A stretch of DNA of 27,966 bases from a virus (Duplodnaviria; Caudoviricetes): the IMG/VR virus record IMGVR_UViG_3300049137_000036, positions 1-27,966 of that record. One strand, given 5' to 3'. The position numbers were made by a program, and so were the translations under genes. Under the pieces are notes generated by a model. That model searched no databases. It was not told where the DNA came from and saw nothing but the letters and a program-made list of their open reading frames with translations. Below are positions 4,228 through 16,710 of the stretch, in pieces; within the stretch, counting starts at the first letter, position 1, and each line of letters begins with the position of its first letter.

Positions 4228-4449
4228 GTGTGGGGTTGGTTCCCTTGGCGTCGAACCGCGGTTCGTAAGCGCGTGGTCGTGAATCTGGAAGACAAGGCGT
4301 TCGCCGGGGCCCTGTGGGCGAAGCGGGGCCCGCTGCTGGTGCTGCGGGACGTGACGTTGATGCAGCACGGCGCTGCAGATACGCCGATGGACGGCGAGGT
4401 CGTCATCGAGCGGTCGAGGGTTGAGTTCATCCAGGTGGCGGGAGGCTGA
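4228..4449 (+). CDS. Small hypothetical protein with a predicted Sm/LSm-like fold
   Basis: AGGAGG RBS; KRVVVNLEDKAFAGAL...LLVLRDV...GEVVIERSRVEFIQV. The gene call is solid; the fold is inferred. Confidence 0.75.
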   Translation: MWGWFPWRRTAVRKRVVVNLEDKAFAGALWAKRGPLLVLRDVTLMQHGAADTPMDGEVVIERSRVEFIQVAGG

Positions 4450-4450
4450 C

Positions 4451-6412
4451 GTGGCGTTCGTCGTCTCCCAGGGGCAGCTGTCGGCGGTGTCGGTGTCTCC
4501 GTCGCTGGTGTCACCGGCCTACATCCAGCTCGCCGACAATGTGTTCCACGAGTACGGGCATCTGTACCGCAAGCAGGCGCAGATCCGCACGGTGGTCAGC
4601 TTCCTGGCGAGGAACATCGCCCAGCTAGGGCTGCACACCTACCGGCGGGTGTCGGATACGGACCGGGAGCGGCTGACGGATCATCCGCTGCCGCGGATTC
4701 TGGCGGCGCCGGGCGCGAGGCTGTCCCGGTACCGGCTGATTGAGCGCCTGGTGTCGGACATCGGGATCTACGACAAGGCGTTCTGGGTCAAGGTCCGCAT
4801 GGAGTCGGGCGAGCTGCTGGGTGTGATCCCGGTGCCGCCGTCGCGGATGGAGATCCGCGGCGACAACTGGCTGGAGCCTGAGCAGTTCGTGGTCCATGGC
4901 TCGAAGGGTGACCTGAAGCTCGACCCGGATCAGGTGGTGTACTTCCACGGCTACGATCCGGACGATCTGCGCGAGGGGTCGTCGCCGATCGAGGCCCTGC
5001 GGAGCATGCTGCAGGAGGAGTACGAGGCGACGCGGTCGCGGGAGCAGATGTGGCGCAATGGCGGCCGGCTTTCCGGTGTGCTGAAGCGGCCGTCGGACGC
5101 ACCGCCGTGGGCGCCTGAGGCGCGGGCCAGGTTCGGTGAGTCGTGGCGCTCGTACACGTCAGGCGGCGGGTCTGCCGGTGGCACGCCGATCCTCGAGGAC
5201 GGCATGGAGTACGAGCAGATCGCCCTCGATCCGGCGAAGGCCCAGTACATCGAGGCCCGCAAGCTCACCAGGGAAGAGGTCGCGGCGGCGTACCACATTC
5301 CGCTGCCGATGGTCGGGATCCTCGACAACGCGACGTTCTCCAACATCAAGGAGCAGCACCAGCATCTCTACCAGGACACGCTCGGCCCGTGGCTGCAGAT
5401 GATCCAGGAGGAGATCGCTCTTCAGCTGATCCCCGACCTGCCGGACTCGGGCGACGTGTATGTCGAGTTCAACCTGCAGGAGAAGCTCCGCGGGTCGTTC
5501 GAGGAGCAGGCCGCGCAACTGCAGACCGCGGTCGGTGCTCCGTGGCTGCTGAGGAACGAAGCCCGGGCGCGGATGAACCTTCCGGCGATCGACGGCGGGA
5601 ACGAACTGATCACTCCGATGAACGTGCTGGTCGGAGGTATGGCGTCGCCCACGGACACGGCACCGAGTCCGGCGCAGGCTTCGCTCCCAAAAGAGCGGGG
5701 CCGCCTGGTGCTGATGAAGGCGGCGCCGGAGCGGCCTGACGGCTTGGGTGACTTCGACGAGGAGCAGGAGCGGTTCGCCGCGGCGCTCGAGCGGTGGACG
5801 AAGCGCCAGTTCGGCCGTCTGGTGGATCGTGCTGGTGCGAAGGCGGACGGCGTCCCGGATCTGCTGTCGTGGTGGAGCGAAGGCTCTGAGGAGCGGCTTG
5901 TCGAACTGACGTCGCTGCTTGCCGAGCATGGCTACCGCATCGCGCAGCTGGGGGCGTGGGGTGTCCTGGCCGACTTCAATCCGGAGGCGGCCGGCTGGGA
6001 TCCGGAAGTGATGCTGCCGTGGCTGCTGGCCGCAGCGGAGTCACACGCCGACCAGCACGAGTCGGCCGGCCACGACGCTGTCGCCGCTGTGGACGACAGC
6101 GGAGACGGCTGGCAGGAGAACCTCAGGCACGCGGGCGAGCTGTGGGTGACAGCGGCAGCGGTACGCGCCCTGACGGCGTCCACGGAGGCCCGCAGCTTCG
6201 GCTCGCATGACGCGGCCGGCGCCTCCGGGGTGACGAAGAAGATCTGGCGGACCGGCGGGAACAGCCCGCGGCCGTCTCACCGAGCGCAGGATGGCGAATC
6301 CGTCTCGATGGATGACGTGTTCAGCAACGGCCTCCGGTGGCCCGGGGACGGCAAGGGCGAGGCCAAGGAAACCGCGAACTGCAAGTGCCGTCTCGACTAC
6401 GCAACGGAGTGA
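4451..6412 (+). CDS. HK97-family portal protein fused to a MuF/minor-head-like C-terminal domain
   Basis: GGAGG RBS then GTG at 4451. Portal motifs GSSPIEAL, ILEDGMEY, EEVAAAYHIP, NEARARMNLP. C-terminal KIWRTGG..RPSHRAQDG..LRWPGD..ANCKCRL is MuF-like. Confidence 0.9.
   Translation: MAFVVSQGQLSAVSVSPSLVSPAYIQLADNVFHEYGHLYRKQAQIRTVVSFLARNIAQLGLHTYRRVSDTDRERLTDHPLPRILAAPGARLSRYRLIERLVSDIGIYDKAFWVKVRMESGELLGVIPVPPSRMEIRGDNWLEPEQFVVHGSKGDLKLDPDQVVYFHGYDPDDLREGSSPIEALRSMLQEEYEATRSREQMWRNGGRLSGVLKRPSDAPPWAPEARARFGESWRSYTSGGGSAGGTPILEDGMEYEQIALDPAKAQYIEARKLTREEVAAAYHIPLPMVGILDNATFSNIKEQHQHLYQDTLGPWLQMIQEEIALQLIPDLPDSGDVYVEFNLQEKLRGSFEEQAAQLQTAVGAPWLLRNEARARMNLPAIDGGNELITPMNVLVGGMASPTDTAPSPAQASLPKERGRLVLMKAAPERPDGLGDFDEEQERFAAALERWTKRQFGRLVDRAGAKADGVPDLLSWWSEGSEERLVELTSLLAEHGYRIAQLGAWGVLADFNPEAAGWDPEVMLPWLLAAAESHADQHESAGHDAVAAVDDSGDGWQENLRHAGELWVTAAAVRALTASTEARSFGSHDAAGASGVTKKIWRTGGNSPRPSHRAQDGESVSMDDVFSNGLRWPGDGKGEAKETANCKCRLDYATE
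5686..5724 (+). other. Candidate -1 ribosomal frameshift signal in the portal gene
   Basis: In-frame C_CCA_AAA heptamer (5686-5692), 7 nt spacer, stem GCCGCCT/AGGCGGC (5700-5706/5718-5724). Confidence 0.55.
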
Positions 6413-10574: not shown

Positions 10575-11345
10575 GTGGCCGGCGACCCGCTGAAGGCAAA
10601 TCTGTGGACGGACGCGGACGTCTACATCTCAACGAATCTGTCCGCGACCCTGCCCGCCAACGCCAACACCGCATTCGGCGTGGACTGGGAACTCGTCGGC
10701 CTGCTCGACGGCGACGAGGGCTTCCCCGAGTCCCGCGACGAGGACACCGACGACAAGTTCGCGTGGGGCGGCATCCTTGTCCGCACCTCGCGGAACCACT
10801 TCAAGCTGACGAAGAACTTCACCGCCCTCGAGGACAACGAGACGACCTACAGCCTCCTGTGGCCGGGCTCGTCCGCGACGCAGATCGTCGTACCCCGCCC
10901 GGCGAAGGTGCTGGTCGCCTTCGAGACGCGCGAGGGCGACAAGGTCCGCCGCCTCATCACCGCCAACTACGCCGAAGTCAGCCTCGACGGCGACCACGGC
11001 GAGAACGAAGCAGACCTCGAGTCGATGACGTTCGCCGCCACGATCTACCCGACCGGCGCCGGCGTCCTCTTCAACCGACAGACCACCCCGATGCTCGAAG
11101 TGATCACTGTCGCCCCCTCGACGCTGAGCATCGCGGACGGTGAGATCGGCTCCCTGACCGCAACGGCCACCTACGACGACGCCTCGACGGCGGACGTCAC
11201 AGCCCTGGCGTCGTGGGTCTCGTCCGACCAGACGAAGGCCACCGTCTCCGCGGGCTTCGTGACAGGCGTGGACGCCGGCTCGTCGACCGTGACCGCGACC
11301 TACCTGGGGCAGTCCGACACCTGCGCCGTGACGGTCACCGTCTAA
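10575..11345 (+). CDS. Major tail protein with C-terminal Ig-like (Big_2-type) domain
   Basis: GAGGAGG RBS; WELVGLLDGDEG, FTALED; C-terminal ITVAPSTLSI..LTATATYDD..WVSSD..GFVTGV..TVTATY. Confidence 0.88.
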   Translation: MAGDPLKANLWTDADVYISTNLSATLPANANTAFGVDWELVGLLDGDEGFPESRDEDTDDKFAWGGILVRTSRNHFKLTKNFTALEDNETTYSLLWPGSSATQIVVPRPAKVLVAFETREGDKVRRLITANYAEVSLDGDHGENEADLESMTFAATIYPTGAGVLFNRQTTPMLEVITVAPSTLSIADGEIGSLTATATYDDASTADVTALASWVSSDQTKATVSAGFVTGVDAGSSTVTATYLGQSDTCAVTVTV

Positions 11346-11347
11346 GC

Positions 11348-11422
11348 CGCCGGGGCGCGGGAGTTCGTCGCGGTTCGGCCGCGCCCCGGTGCACCACCTT
11401 CCGAACCGCGAGGAGCCGCGAC
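11348..11422 (+). promoter_or_regulatory. Structured cis-regulatory RNA (hairpin whose loop is complementary to downstream sites)
   Basis: Stem 11350-11360/11379-11389. The loop is complementary to 11401-11411, 11413-11422 and 11791-11805. Confidence 0.6.
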
Positions 11423-11776
11423 ATGCAGGTCAAGTTCACTGACGAAGACATTCGGGCCGAAGCGGAACGCCTCGGCCTCGTCACGCCCGGCGGCGAGATG
11501 CCACGCCATCTCCGCAGCCGCGTAGTGGCCGTCCTGATCGAACGGCAGACCCAAGCCGCGCCAGGCGGCTCCGCAGCGGAGCCGCAGCTGGCGAAGGAGA
11601 TCGTCATCCAGCCTGGCGGAGTCATCCTCATCGACGGCGAGACGTTCCCGTGGCTGGTCGCCAGGGAGCCGATGGACATCCGCGTCAGCCCCGACGCCGT
11701 CAGCACCGTGCGCCTGACCCTCATGGCGGGCACCGTCCAAGTCCTCAAGACCGAACCGCACCCGGAGAGCGAGTAA
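11423..11776 (+). CDS. Hypothetical protein between major tail and tail chaperone
   Basis: AGGAG RBS at 11411-11415, ATG at 11423 (MQVKFTDEDIRAEAERLG...). Confidence 0.72.
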   Translation: MQVKFTDEDIRAEAERLGLVTPGGEMPRHLRSRVVAVLIERQTQAAPGGSAAEPQLAKEIVIQPGGVILIDGETFPWLVAREPMDIRVSPDAVSTVRLTLMAGTVQVLKTEPHPESE

Positions 11777-11779
11777 GAC

Positions 11780-12124
11780 ATGGCCACCACCCGAACCGCG
11801 ACGAAGCCGGCTGACGACCAGCCCTTCGACTTCAACCTCGACGCCGTCCGCTCCGAAGTCGACCTGGCCCCGTTCCGGGTCAACTTCAACGGCCGACGCT
11901 GGGAGTTCGCCCACATCGAAAGCCTCGACATCTGGGACCTCGTCGACGCTGCCGAAGGCGGCGAGATCAAGGCGATGACCGGCGTCTTCCGCATCTCCCT
12001 CGGTGACGACTGGGAGGACTTCCGCAAGGTCAAGCTGCCGCAGTTCAAGATGAAGGCCCTGTTCACGGCCTACCGGAAGCACTGCGGGCTGGAGCCGGGG
12101 GAATCCGAAGCCTCCGGCACCTGA
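11780..12124 (+). CDS. Tail assembly chaperone (gpG-like)
   Basis: FDFNLDA...APFRVNFNGRRWEF; ends near the slippery site (EPGES). Confidence 0.85.
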   Translation: MATTRTATKPADDQPFDFNLDAVRSEVDLAPFRVNFNGRRWEFAHIESLDIWDLVDAAEGGEIKAMTGVFRISLGDDWEDFRKVKLPQFKMKALFTAYRKHCGLEPGESEASGT

Positions 12125-12543
12125 TCCGGAGGCATGGCAGAGCCCTCGAGGCAGACCTGCGCAGCGAGTACGGCGTCAGGCTGCGGGACCTCACGAACGG
12201 GGACATGACCTACCGCGAGCTCGCAAGCTACGTACAGGGCCTGTCTCCGCAGTCACGAACCCGCACCGCCTTGAACGACGGCCTCGTCGAGCCGTCGCCG
12301 GAGACGGTCGTGCTCGCCGACGTCTTCGACGCGATCACGATCCACGACTGGCACTTCGCTGCGGTCAACACTGACGACAAGAAGCCGTCACCGAAACGCC
12401 CGAAGCCGTATCCGCGCTGGTGGACGGCAGGCACCGCCAAGACCAAGCCCGCACAGAGCTCGCAGCGGGTGGCGCGCATCGAGGATGCACGTCGCCGCAG
12501 GCGCGAGCGCGCCCAAGCCATCGCCGAGGGCCGCATCAGCTGA
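11780..12543 (+). CDS. Tail assembly chaperone, -1 frameshift product (gpGT-like)
   Basis: G_GGG_GAA at 12097-12103. The -1 frame is open (IRSLRHLIRRHGRALEADLRSEYGVRLRDL) and runs into ORF 12205-12543 with a KRPKPYPRW motif. Confidence 0.85.
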
Positions 12544-12546
12544 TGC

Positions 12547-12568
12547 TGTCAGTGGGCGTCGATAGGCT
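12547..12568 (+). promoter_or_regulatory. RecA-NDp/PafBC-type DNA-damage-inducible promoter motif
   Basis: TGTCAGTG, 8 nt, TAGGCT matches the mycobacterial tTGTCRgtg-N8-TAnnnT consensus. Confidence 0.55.
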
Positions 12569-12583
12569 TGACGGGCGATCAGA

Positions 12584-12614
12584 GCCCCGGCGAGTGCGCT
12601 AACACTCCCGGGGC
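12584..12614 (+). promoter_or_regulatory. Leader hairpin of the HNH gene
   Basis: GCCCCGG-C-GAGTG / loop CGCTAA / CACTC-CCGGGGC (12 bp with one bulge). Confidence 0.55.
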
Positions 12615-12639
12615 ATGGCCAACCTGGTGAGAGGTCGAC

Positions 12640-13314
12640 ATGGCCAAGCGTAGCCGTATCTGCCTGGGCTGCGGAAATGCCCTGGATACTCAGGGAAGAA
12701 GGGTCTGGCCGGAGTACTGCTCCGAATCGTGCAAGCCTCGGTGTTCAGTCGCAGAATGCGGCGGCCCGGTGCGCAAGCGGGGTTGGTGCGGAAGCCACTA
12801 CGCGCAATGGCAACGAACGGGCGCTGACCCCACACCCTTCAAGTGGAAGTGGTCGGAGCATCAGCCTTGCACTGTCTGCGGCAGCGAGGATCGGACTCCC
12901 GAACTCCGGCGGTTCTGCTCCTGGGCGTGCCGACAGCTCCACAGAACGTACAGAGGCAAGCCTCCAGTCGCTGTCGGCTGCGTGCTGTGCGGCACAACCA
13001 TAGATCTGACGGTGCGAGGCAAGGGTGGCCAGCGCAAGAAGGCATGCACCAAGCTGTGTCGCCCGTGCCGTCAGGACTACAGCAAGTACAAGGCGACTGC
13101 CCGCCAACTGGCGCTGCGCGATGGGGCGTACTGCGGCCTCTGTGCGCAGCGGGTCGACATGAGCTTGTCCCGCGTTGTTGACAGCAAGTGGTGCCCATCC
13201 GTGGATCACGTCATCCCTCGAGCGCTTGGCGGATCGCATGAGGCGGACAACCTTCAACTCGCCCACCTGTACTGCAACCAAGTGAAGAGCGACCTGCGGG
13301 GTGCGCTTCCGTAA
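12640..13314 (+). CDS. Free-standing HNH (homing-type) endonuclease with Cys-rich zinc-binding N-terminus
   Basis: RDGAYCGLC...SVDHVIPRALGGSHEADNLQLAHLYCNQVK; CSVAECGGPVRKRGWCGSHY; codon usage differs from neighbours; interrupts the chaperone-tape measure synteny. Confidence 0.88.
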   Translation: MAKRSRICLGCGNALDTQGRRVWPEYCSESCKPRCSVAECGGPVRKRGWCGSHYAQWQRTGADPTPFKWKWSEHQPCTVCGSEDRTPELRRFCSWACRQLHRTYRGKPPVAVGCVLCGTTIDLTVRGKGGQRKKACTKLCRPCRQDYSKYKATARQLALRDGAYCGLCAQRVDMSLSRVVDSKWCPSVDHVIPRALGGSHEADNLQLAHLYCNQVKSDLRGALP

Positions 13315-13335
13315 CCGAATACGGGGGGTGACGTA

Positions 13336-16300
13336 ATGCCCAACGTTGGTTACGCTACGATACAAATTATACCCTCAGTTCGAGGCATTTCGGACGAGCT
13401 GCGACGGCAGTTGGCTGGCCCGGCGGCCGACGCGGCGGACCGGGCCGGTGAGGAGTCCGGCTCGAGGTTCAGCGACAAGTGGAAGGCTGGTCTGGCCGCT
13501 GCTGGAGCCGCGGCCGGTGCGGTGCTCGTTGCGGCGACCGTGTCAGCGGTCGAGAAGGAGCGGGTCGCTGACCGTCTGGCCGCGCAGCTCGGCCTGTCCG
13601 GCAAGGGCGCGAAGCAGGCCGGCAAGGTCGCAGGTGACCTGTACTCCAAGGCCGTCGTGGACTCCTTCGAGGACGGTGCCGCAGCGGTCAAGGCCGTCAT
13701 GAGCTCAGGCCTGATCCCCGAGAAGGCCACGACCAAGAGCATCGAGGCCATCACCACCAAGGTCGCCGACCTTGCCAACACCTTCGACCAGGATCTGACG
13801 GGCACGGCGAACGCCGCAGCCCAGATGATCCGCACCGGCCTGGCCAAAGACGGTGCCCAGGCTCTCGACCTGCTGACCACCGGCTTCCAGTCCTCCGCTG
13901 ACAAGGCGGGCGACTTCGTCGACACGATCAACGAGTACGGCACGCAGTTCAGGAAGGCCGGCCTCGACGGCGCTTCGGCGATCGGACTGCTGAACCAGGC
14001 CATCGCGGCCGGCGCCCGGGACGCCGACATTGCCGCGGACGCCATCAAAGAGTTTTCGATCAGGGCCGTCGATGGGACGGAAGGCACAGCCGACGGCTTC
14101 AAGGCCCTGGGCCTCAATGCCGATGACATGGCCAAGAAGTTCGCCCGGGGCGGCAGCGCCGCGAACGGCGTGCTCGACCTGACGCTCGACAAGCTCCGCG
14201 GCATCAAGGACCCGGTCAAGCAGTCACAGGCGGCGGTCGCGCTGTTCGGCACCCAGGCAGAGGACTTGGGTGCGGCTTTGTTTGCCATGGACCCCTCGTC
14301 CGCAGCAGCGGGTCTGGACAAGGTCGGCGGTGCCGCCAAACGCGTCGGCGACACCATCCGCGGCAACACGTCGACCGAGCTGAAGATCCTGCAGCGGCAG
14401 ATCACCGGCGCTCTCGGCGACCTCGTCACAACTGTGGTCCTGCCTGCGCTGAGAGGCCTCAACGATGCCCTGGCTTGGGTCGGCGAGGCGGTCGCCGCAG
14501 TCGGCCGCTGGTTCCGCGAGTGGGGTGCCTGGCTGGCCCCGGTCGCCATCCTGATCGGCGGGGTGACGCTGGCGCTGAACGCTCAGGCCATCGCCACCGG
14601 CCTGGTGACGGCCGTCTTCTCCGCATACCGGGCCGCGATCCTGGTGGGCACCGCGGTGACGAACGGCTTCGCCGCAGCGCAGGCTCTGTTGAACGCGGTG
14701 ATGGCGCTGAACCCCATCACCCTCATCGTGATCGCTCTGGTCGCCCTCGGCGCCGCCCTCGTCGTCGCCTACAACAAGTCGGAGACGTTCAGGAGCATTG
14801 TCCAGGCGGCATGGTCCGGCATCCAGACTGCCGCTCAGTGGGCTTGGCAGAACGTCCTCAAGCCCGCTCTGGACGGCATCGTTGTCGCCTTCCAGGCCGT
14901 GGCGACGGCTGCGACGTGGCTGTGGCAGAACGTCCTGAGCCCGGTCTTCACGTTCATCTCGACAGCCGCGCAGATCCTCATGACCGCGGTCGTCGTGATC
15001 GCACTGCTGCCGATTATCGCGATCTTCAAGCTGTTGGCGGCAACGGCGACGTGGCTGTGGCAGACCGTCCTCAGCCCTGCCTTTACAGCCATCGGCGACC
15101 TCGCTGTGTGGCTGTACAGCACGGTCCTGAAGCCGGCGTTCGACAACATGGTCGCCGCGATTCGCCTGCTCGGCTCCGTGGCCTCGTGGCTGTGGAAGAA
15201 CGTGTTCTCGCCCGTCTTCACCTGGATCGGAAGCAAGATTTCGCAGGTCTGGACGGGGATCATCAAGCCCGCCCTCGACTTCCTGCGGATCGGTCTGCAG
15301 GTTACGGGCGACAAGGCGCGATGGATCTGGGACAAGGTCTTCAGCCCCGTCTTCACCTGGATCGGCGACAAGGGCAAGTGGCTGTGGGACAAAGCCCTGC
15401 GGCCCGCGTTCGACAACGTGAAGAAGGGCGTCGAGAAGGTCGGCAAGTCCTTCGAGGACGCCAAGAACTTCATCGGCAAGGCCTGGTCGGGCGTGCAGGA
15501 TCTGGCGAAGAAGCCGGTGAAGTTCGTCATCGACAAGATCTACAACGCGGGCATTGTGCCCACATGGAACCTGGTCGCCAAGGCATTCGGGGCTCCGACC
15601 ATCAAGCCGATGAGCCTCAAGGGCTGGGCGACGGGCGGCGTCCTGCCCGGGTACACGCCGGGCCGTGACGTGCATCTGGCCGCCCTGTCCGGCGGCGAGG
15701 CCGTGATGCGGCCCGAGTGGACGCGCGCCGTCGGCCCCGGCTACGTCAACAGCATGAACGCTGCAGCCCGCCATGGTGGCATCAAGGGCGTGCAGCGTGC
15801 CCTCGGGCTGCCCGGATTCGCCGACGGCGGCATCTTCGGCTGGGTCAAGGGAGCCGCTTCCAAGGGCATCGACCTGGCTAAGTCTGGCGTCTCCTGGCTG
15901 AAGGACGGCATCAAGGAATCAGCGATGGCCGGTCTGAACTCTGTCGTCCGACCCCTCATCGACAAGATCGCGGGATCTGCCTCGATGTACCGGGACATGA
16001 TCAGCGGCGTCCCGAAGCGGATGCTGAACGCCGTCTTCGACTTCTCGGGGAAAGCGGACCGCAAGCTCGAGGCTGCTGGCGTCGGCGGCAAGGGCTACAA
16101 GGCAGGGTTGTCGTGGGCGCGCACGCAGGCGGGCAAGAAGTACCAGTGGGGCGGCAATGGCAACCCTTCATGGGACTGCTCCGGTTTCGTCTCCGCGATC
16201 GAGTCCGTCATCCGTGGGCAGAAGCCGCACCGCCGCTGGGCTACTGGCGCCTTCTCTGGTGCTACCGCCCCGGGCGGCTGGAAGCTCGGGGCCCGCTCCC

Positions 16301-16710
16301 CGTACATGATCGGCATCACGAATGCCGGCGTCGGCCACACGGCGGGAACGCTCAACGGCGTCAACGTCGAATCCAGGGGCGGCGACGGCGTCATCGTCGG
16401 CAAGCGGGCACGCTCCTACCTCGACCCGCTGTTCACCCACCGGTATGGCCTCAAGTACGACAACGGCGGGTGGCTCCAGCCAGGAGTCACCGCAGCGGTC
16501 AACGCAACCGGCCGCCCGGAAGCTGTCCTCACCGCGCGCCAGTGGGAGATCGCTGGAAGGGCCCTGTCCTCGAGTGGCGGCCTGCAGCCCGGCGCCAAGG
16601 TCCGGCTCGTGGTCCGCGACCGTGAATTCGAGGCGTACATGGAAGAAGTCGCCGACGGCCGCGTGGATTCTGCCCTGACAACAGTGCGCCGCGCTGCGCG
16701 GCACGGATAG
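13336..16710 (+). CDS. Tape measure protein with C-terminal NlpC/P60-like peptidase domain
   Basis: 1124 aa, Ala-rich; DTINEYGTQF..ADAIKEFSIR..ALFGTQAEDLG core; Trp-periodic amphipathic repeats; YQWGG..WDCSGFVS..GHT. Confidence 0.93.
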   Translation: MPNVGYATIQIIPSVRGISDELRRQLAGPAADAADRAGEESGSRFSDKWKAGLAAAGAAAGAVLVAATVSAVEKERVADRLAAQLGLSGKGAKQAGKVAGDLYSKAVVDSFEDGAAAVKAVMSSGLIPEKATTKSIEAITTKVADLANTFDQDLTGTANAAAQMIRTGLAKDGAQALDLLTTGFQSSADKAGDFVDTINEYGTQFRKAGLDGASAIGLLNQAIAAGARDADIAADAIKEFSIRAVDGTEGTADGFKALGLNADDMAKKFARGGSAANGVLDLTLDKLRGIKDPVKQSQAAVALFGTQAEDLGAALFAMDPSSAAAGLDKVGGAAKRVGDTIRGNTSTELKILQRQITGALGDLVTTVVLPALRGLNDALAWVGEAVAAVGRWFREWGAWLAPVAILIGGVTLALNAQAIATGLVTAVFSAYRAAILVGTAVTNGFAAAQALLNAVMALNPITLIVIALVALGAALVVAYNKSETFRSIVQAAWSGIQTAAQWAWQNVLKPALDGIVVAFQAVATAATWLWQNVLSPVFTFISTAAQILMTAVVVIALLPIIAIFKLLAATATWLWQTVLSPAFTAIGDLAVWLYSTVLKPAFDNMVAAIRLLGSVASWLWKNVFSPVFTWIGSKISQVWTGIIKPALDFLRIGLQVTGDKARWIWDKVFSPVFTWIGDKGKWLWDKALRPAFDNVKKGVEKVGKSFEDAKNFIGKAWSGVQDLAKKPVKFVIDKIYNAGIVPTWNLVAKAFGAPTIKPMSLKGWATGGVLPGYTPGRDVHLAALSGGEAVMRPEWTRAVGPGYVNSMNAAARHGGIKGVQRALGLPGFADGGIFGWVKGAASKGIDLAKSGVSWLKDGIKESAMAGLNSVVRPLIDKIAGSASMYRDMISGVPKRMLNAVFDFSGKADRKLEAAGVGGKGYKAGLSWARTQAGKKYQWGGNGNPSWDCSGFVSAIESVIRGQKPHRRWATGAFSGATAPGGWKLGARSPYMIGITNAGVGHTAGTLNGVNVESRGGDGVIVGKRARSYLDPLFTHRYGLKYDNGGWLQPGVTAAVNATGRPEAVLTARQWEIAGRALSSSGGLQPGAKVRLVVRDREFEAYMEEVADGRVDSALTTVRRAARHG

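Follow-up and report, generated by a model that had tools for sequence, protein, structure and literature searches.

A synonymously recoded tape measure gene start beside an HNH endonuclease gene in an actinobacterial siphovirus, and candidate ribosome hops in its relatives

We identified a probable mobile homing cassette in the siphovirus head-tail operon of a virus record (operon assigned by profile matches across the window, the whole stretch of 27,966 nucleotides that was analysed). The putative cassette reaches from the stop codon of a tail assembly chaperone gene (12543) to about codon 18 of the tape measure protein (TMP) gene and contains an HNH endonuclease gene; the A/T-ending codons at the TMP start would make the cassette's own copy resistant to the enzyme. 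About half of the relatives that carry an HNH gene of this family at the same position have a short insert in the TMP start instead. It is quite possible, although we hold this view tentatively, that this actinophage homing HNH family has driven repeated natural ribosome hops over 3-9 nt, true stop-hops among them, with the help of a hairpin, and that recoding is the other route of escape.

The HNH gene and the recoded tape measure start

The closest named TMP relatives of the window phage are Streptomyces phages and prophages. The order of genes is second tail-chaperone ORF, HNH gene and TMP gene, with the following features:

11780..12124, + strand, tail assembly chaperone, first ORF (phrog_22068, phrog_10551)
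12205..12543, + strand, tail assembly chaperone, second ORF (phrog_3656, 393; aligned with L002, L006 and L015)
12547..12568, + strand, promoter-like site matching the PafBC consensus tGTCgg(N10)tA(N3)T with one low-conservation mismatch
12584..12614, + strand, predicted leader hairpin before the HNH gene (centroid fold; z of the whole leader only -1.5)
12640..13314, + strand, 224-aa HNH endonuclease (PF01844, 33.4 bits, above the cut-off of 21.4 bits)
13315..13335, + strand, replacement spacer and ribosome-binding site of the TMP gene
13336..16710, + strand, uninterrupted TMP gene, 1124 aa (PF10145; many PHROG TMP families)
13345..13389, + strand, A/T-recoded TMP codons 4-18, the putative immune version of the HNH target
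13366..13371, - strand, TATAAT hexamer formed opposite codons 11-12

The HNH gene lies outside any intron or intein, between the chaperone and TMP genes, which abut in close relatives without HNH. Since the stop of the second chaperone ORF in these relatives aligns about 20 nt 5' of the TMP start, the chaperone stop was taken as the left edge of the insertion. The presence of the HNH gene is patchy among close relatives, as it is absent from L002, whose TMP is 90% identical to that of the window. A contig of depth 44.5 spans 12000-14200 with 0 differences from the window; it probably comes from the source sample. In a contig from X3, whose depth of 2.5 is too thin to count, the HNH end and the leader show 13 differences, whereas about 13334-13358 shows none. 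Among the sequencing runs listed as containing the region, there was no RNA run.

Profile searches agreed with the identities given to the HNH and TMP genes in the sequence-only reading. The HNH protein consists of Cys-rich N-terminal modules, likely zinc- or DNA-binding, followed by the HNH domain at the C-terminus. Residues D189, H190, N204, H209 and N213 are invariant in 48 homologues, indicating an intact nuclease domain. A fold search with the structure model (pLDDT 84) gave weak matches only, of which the best was a Geobacter HNH nickase (E 0.02), and no match at E<=0.001; PADLOC gave a weak PtuB match that is limited to the HNH domain. An RNA-guided HNH of the IscB type was rejected (NF040563, 21.2 bits against a cut-off of 175). 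Terminase-associated packaging HNH proteins are short HNH proteins beside the small terminase; this identity was rejected as well, as a second, short HNH (1543-1923) holds that position before the small terminase and the 224-aa gene belongs to the tail operon. No notable Rfam match was obtained in 11000-15000 of the window or in six relatives. Elsewhere in the operon, the portal ORF (4421-6412) shows a weak MuF-like match at its C-terminus. The best PHROG family of the TMP (phrog_971) and several RefSeq records carry the label 'endolysin', and TMP residues 933-954 give a weak NlpC/P60 match.

The leader motif of the HNH gene (12584-12630) matches 40 viral contigs (L324-L363), and in the loci that were read it mostly precedes Cys-rich endonuclease-like ORFs by terminase, portal, protease or tail genes. 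By these matches, many of the endonuclease-like genes in these phages share the predicted leader hairpin. The PafBC-like site, for which the consensus was taken from the accessible text of PMC8635444, is the only match in the window (0.10 expected; 9/100 shuffles give one). Such sites are also found in L156, L252 and L317, but not across the HNH family; the site is a weak lead that may tie HNH expression to DNA damage.

In TMP codons 4-18, 11 of the 15 codons end in A or T, compared to a fraction of 0.130 in the remaining 1106 codons of the gene (binomial 1.5e-7; Bonferroni p = 2.3e-4 over 5756 windows of 15 codons in 20 phage genes). The gene has only two ATA codons, both within the patch, and the other genes reach at most 8/15 in any stretch of 15 codons. 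The sequence-only reading had thus quoted the codons correctly and rightly described the rest of the gene as G/C-ending and the other genes as free of so extreme a patch. The TMP ribosome site (13321-13350) is predicted to be closed in the window and in 28 relatives (13.9-25.7 kcal/mol), which together with the nearby upstream stop suggests coupling to the upstream gene.

To compare the patch with relatives, TMP-homology searches were performed, which gave 80 and 74 TMP loci; the L067 contig is the only one with an HNH gene before the TMP gene. The HNH-less comparison set consists of 62 distinct TMPs with a related N-terminal motif. For the same or a closely related peptide these use G/C-ending codons, as the sequence-only reading had predicted, the number of A/T-ending codons of 15 being 0 (8 loci), 1 (11), 2 (19), 3 (17), 4 (6) or 6 (1). 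The synonymous mismatch in codons 4-18 between the window and 23 close HNH-less relatives is 0.80, compared to 0.41 among those relatives themselves, and in eight later codon bins the two agree throughout (0.36-0.64 for the window and 0.37-0.60 for the HNH-less pairs). Because the excess sits in codons 4-18 and the later bins are at control level, the rewriting is local and synonymous. Seven of the patch codons of the window are used by at most one of the 23 close relatives, and codon 18 is ATT in the window against ATC in 23/23. This confined excess of synonymous divergence lends comparative support to the earlier proposal that the patch reflects homing-site immunity.

Distribution and movement of the HNH family

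A search for homologues of the HNH protein (E<1e-17) yielded 39 rows representing 35 distinct homologues, of which 30 directly precede a TMP-like gene. Most of these TMP-like calls are backed by PHROG matches (31 proteins scanned), with none for L167, L169, L246 and L251; L245, L247 and L250 were too short for the PHROG scan and their call rests on the N-terminal motif. The other five are located before a major tail gene (L172), before an apparent major tail gene (L256), at a contig end (L241) or elsewhere (L162 and L254). The HNH profile matched only the centre genome among 401 phylum-wide genomes and gave 2 matches in 401 Streptomyces genomes.

Recoding is variable within the family. The nearest carriers have 6 (L156), 8 (L317) and 6 (L252) A/T-ending codons of 15. 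The 19 HNH-adjacent TMP starts that are intact (see below) show an A/T excess of 0.17 compared to 0.04 in controls (p 5e-5; the loci are not independent), and some of them show little or none (+0.05 in L166 and L167, -0.12 in L379). In the patch, 11 of the 13 codons for residues shared by the window and L252 differ. As HNH carriers recode differently from one another, there is no single immune allele.

Several observations are consistent with movement of the HNH gene together with the adjoining TMP start. The intact HNH proteins of the nearest carriers are 73-77% identical, versus 47-63% for the TMP bodies. The 5' part of the TMP leader is common to the window and L317 despite 47% identity of the TMP bodies, and L252 and L317 have residues 2-18 in common with only 47% identity over the TMP body. 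In a TMP tree of 43 rows from which codons 4-18 were excluded, the HNH label needs 4 changes, at least two of them forced, and HNH carriers never formed one group in 200 bootstrap TMP trees, a conflict that ordinary phage mosaicism can also give. In L157, L165, L169 and L248 TMP-like codons stand at the beginning of the HNH ORF, and a second TMP start is located downstream of the HNH; the first four codons of the L157 HNH ORF are those of the HNH-less L460/L461. Because their HNH ORFs start TMP-like, these elements appear to have entered the 5' end of the TMP gene and brought a replacement start, as MobA did. The window cassette, by contrast, begins right after the chaperone stop.

In L252 (445-657) an internal deletion that is in frame and keeps start and stop has left an HNH of 70 aa, and the TMP start is still recoded. 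The deletion could preserve translational coupling or could be an assembly collapse. A sister HNH (37-40% identical) is found before the major tail gene in L172 (1818-2570), L316, L008, L082 and L114 (partial), and these loci keep a G/C-coded TMP start. Endonucleases directly precede the TMP gene in the Gordonia phages Phistory and Getalong (endonuclease VII) and in Microbacterium phage Footloose (HNH); Periwinkle has no annotated endonuclease at this position. The TMP starts that follow the distant endonucleases of Footloose and Phistory are intact and, as judged by eye, show no obvious patch.

Short inserts in the tape measure starts of relatives

The HNH-adjacent TMP starts comprise 36 distinct loci: the 30 mentioned above, the window, L173, L317, L372, L379 and L449. 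While 19 of the 36 are intact, 17 have an insert of 3-9 nt after codon 9-14, within the region that is recoded in the window. Insert lengths are 3 nt (2 loci), 4 nt (4), 6 nt (6), 7 nt (4) and 9 nt (1). The triplet after the take-off codon is a stop in 12 of the 17, TTA in two (L248 and L449) and AGA, CCA or CAA in three. In 13 inserts the last three bases repeat the take-off codon or a synonym of it in register, for example CTT TAG CTC, GTT TAG GTC and TAC T TAC, and eight of these 13 matched pairs run from a U-ending to a C-ending codon read by one tRNA; in the remaining four inserts two of the three landing bases fit. Insert boundaries were placed by eye, which favours codon matches, and HNH-less homologues fix the insert length in several cases (prophi62-3 for L159, Sleepyhead for L163, Malibo for L236). 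The conserved TMP motif continues on both sides of the insert, and downstream of the landing codon the frame stays open as far as the available DNA extends in 17/17, for at least 385 codons in 10. The TMP of the window itself has no insert, no matched take-off and landing codons and no UUA.

Inserts were absent from all 136 distinct HNH-less TMP starts (133 with a ribosome-site-matched in-frame start and three left undecided); four incomplete loci had been dropped from this count, and motif-bearing rows were already intact by selection. The difference between 17/36 and 0/136 (Fisher 7e-14) is inflated by kinship, since p-values overstate independence when loci are related. A reverse test in which two insert patterns were scanned gave 2 and 11 matches. 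The six true TMP matches all have an HNH upstream (2/2 and 4/4) and represent five distinct loci that were already in the set, and the other seven are non-TMP chance matches. Among the cultured phages searched, none had an HNH of this family plus an insert.

A predicted hairpin with a 4-bp stem and a 6-nt loop, which begins 33-35 nt upstream of the start codon, is present in 11 of the 17 insert loci, in 0/19 intact carriers and in 0/62 HNH-less controls. All 44 cells pair, and three of the four pairs change on both sides, with a different locus for each pair; the sequences used for covariation are the same ones from which the structure was read. Its distance is fixed relative to the start codon and not to the take-off codon. 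Scanning 401 and then 7 bacterial genomes with the hairpin pattern gave two matches, both inside host genes and attributed to chance. Predicted folds are somewhat more stable in the insert loci (mean z -1.59 versus -0.34; below -2 in 7/17 versus 5/62), and no single structure is common to those that fold stably. A long hairpin from the leader to codon 16 was considered as a special feature of HNH carriers and was dropped because HNH-less relatives are equally closed. A small gene right after another HNH (L438, 2316-2460) appears to shift frame at a TTA, resembling the UUA inserts of phage Hau3, and no matched landing codon was seen there.

Mechanism, alternative explanations and relation to known systems

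By analogy with MobA and MobE, the HNH would bind the conserved TMP-start sequence via its Cys-rich modules and nick it, in the HNH-less allele of a co-infecting phage or of a prophage. Repair from the HNH-bearing genome would then co-convert the HNH gene, the new leader and the recoded codons, and the A/T-ending codons would spare the phage's own copy with the peptide unchanged. In the relatives, the insert of 3-9 nt would protect the same site in the manner of the T4 gene 60 insert, and ribosomes would hop between the matched codons. Because the peptide cannot change, escape would have to come from silent changes or from non-coding bases that the ribosome skips.

The fact that leader and N-terminal peptide follow the HNH gene, as in L252 and L317, and that carriers differ from each other within the patch, would also fit a TMP start that travels with the cassette without being its target, the A/T codons being drift, foreign codon bias or repair scars of recombination junctions. 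We consider this unlikely: foreign codon bias fails because only 26% of the codons of the HNH ORF end in A or T, compared to 73% in the patch, and drift leaves unexplained why 17 loci have frame-breaking inserts at the same codons with an open frame downstream. It is quite improbable that the A/T codons were selected to open the TMP ribosome site or to adjust early elongation once the HNH had changed the leader. Of the versions resampled with the codon usage of the gene, 99% indeed have a stronger 78-nt fold than the native one, and HNH-less TMPs also show a slight 5' A/T excess (0.14 versus 0.10). However, opening positions -15 to +15 would take 18.8 kcal/mol compared to 19.7 ± 2.1 in resampled versions (31st percentile) and 21.1 ± 3.2 in 28 HNH-less relatives, whose range of 13.9-25.7 kcal/mol includes the window value. 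Of the resampled L156 starts, 96% are more open than the native one, and a patch of this kind is absent from the other genes of the window. These opening energies give no support to an unstructured translation start, which the sequence-only reading had offered as its alternative. An antisense promoter within the patch that damps the HNH gene is very improbable. The TATAAT is the only one in the window (0.20 expected) and is directed into the HNH gene, but 17/100 shuffles yield one, no promoter with a -35 box was found, the hexamer is not kept in L156, L252 and L317, and it accounts for two of the eleven codons. Against homing itself stand the single HNH-less TMP that also reaches 6/15, the near-zero excess in several of the 19 intact carriers, the differing recoding among carriers and the five of 35 homologues not seen before a TMP gene. 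In addition, the cuts made by free-standing enzymes are often hundreds of bases away according to the accessible part of PMC2988022, and in the available text on MobA, polymorphisms alone did not block nicking (bioRxiv 2022.08.31.505936).

The inserts may have an explanation other than hopping, namely readthrough, +1 frameshifting, restart downstream, removal at the RNA level or dead phages; we find this doubtful, yet give it considerable weight. Inserts of 3, 6 and 9 nt stay in frame, so that readthrough would suffice, a fully matched landing codon is missing in four loci, a start codon lies at most 7 codons from the landing site in 5/17, some inserts resemble decayed two-codon duplications, and the search of cultured phages returned no insert-bearing member. 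Hopping is favoured by the in-register matched codons, many of them for one tRNA, by the motif that continues across the insert, by a next start at least 20 codons away in nine loci, by the long open frame downstream and by the covarying hairpin at a fixed distance.

The arrangement resembles the seg/mob genes of T4-like phages, as far as described in the accessible part of PMC2988022, in having an HNH gene between conserved genes, patchy presence in relatives, a structured leader and a predicted target in the neighbouring essential gene. It differs in that the hosts of the element are actinobacterial siphoviruses, that no more than tens of bases separate the predicted site from the HNH gene and that the HNH domain is C-terminal behind Cys-rich modules, whereas mob genes are described there with a distinct C-terminal binding region. 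MobA, according to the available text of bioRxiv 2022.08.31.505936, has both a diverged version of its target and a bypass insert with a protective role. As in the part of the T4 mobA/gene 60 work that was available, an HNH element here appears to enter an essential gene and to supply a diverged target copy, and the relatives of the window phage carry a frame-breaking insert with matched codons. Compared to what that part describes, the gene is a TMP start and not a topoisomerase, it is unsplit and the gaps are 3-9 nt and not 50; the window phage is recoded only, without an insert. In the terminase of Streptomyces phage Hau3, a 10-nt UUA bypass (7-nt in a prophage) was shown by mass spectrometry in E. 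coli, as given in the accessible text of PMC10732093. The likeness to that account lies in short frame-breaking blocks in an actinophage morphogenesis gene. The difference is that the gene is the TMP gene and not the terminase, that a stop follows take-off in 12/17 and UUA in only 2/17, and that the inserts are tied to an HNH; the accessible text of PMC10732093 mentions neither HNH nor tape. Synthetic 'stop-hops' have been made in E. coli, and a 2016 review, in its accessible part, knew no natural in-frame stop hopping (PMC5009743). If confirmed, the inserts of the relatives would be natural cases in an essential gene.

In the literature examined, part of it available only in extract, utilised bypassing comprises T4-type gene 60, Hau3-type terminases and yeast mitochondria only. 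Our literature search, mostly of openly accessible papers, found no report on TMP bypassing or on HNH targeting of TMP starts. Bypassing in actinophage terminase or TMP genes may already have been reported elsewhere. Taken by itself, the patch is one more example of a principle already known, and the surprise lies in the short candidate hops of the relatives. For this uncharacterised nuclease family, the patch offers a candidate target of 45 bp, and the relatives provide 17 compact sites of candidate bypassing within an essential gene. If these sites work, annotation tools will mis-call such TMP starts, short hops would be common in actinophages, and nuclease escape would be a general origin of recoding.
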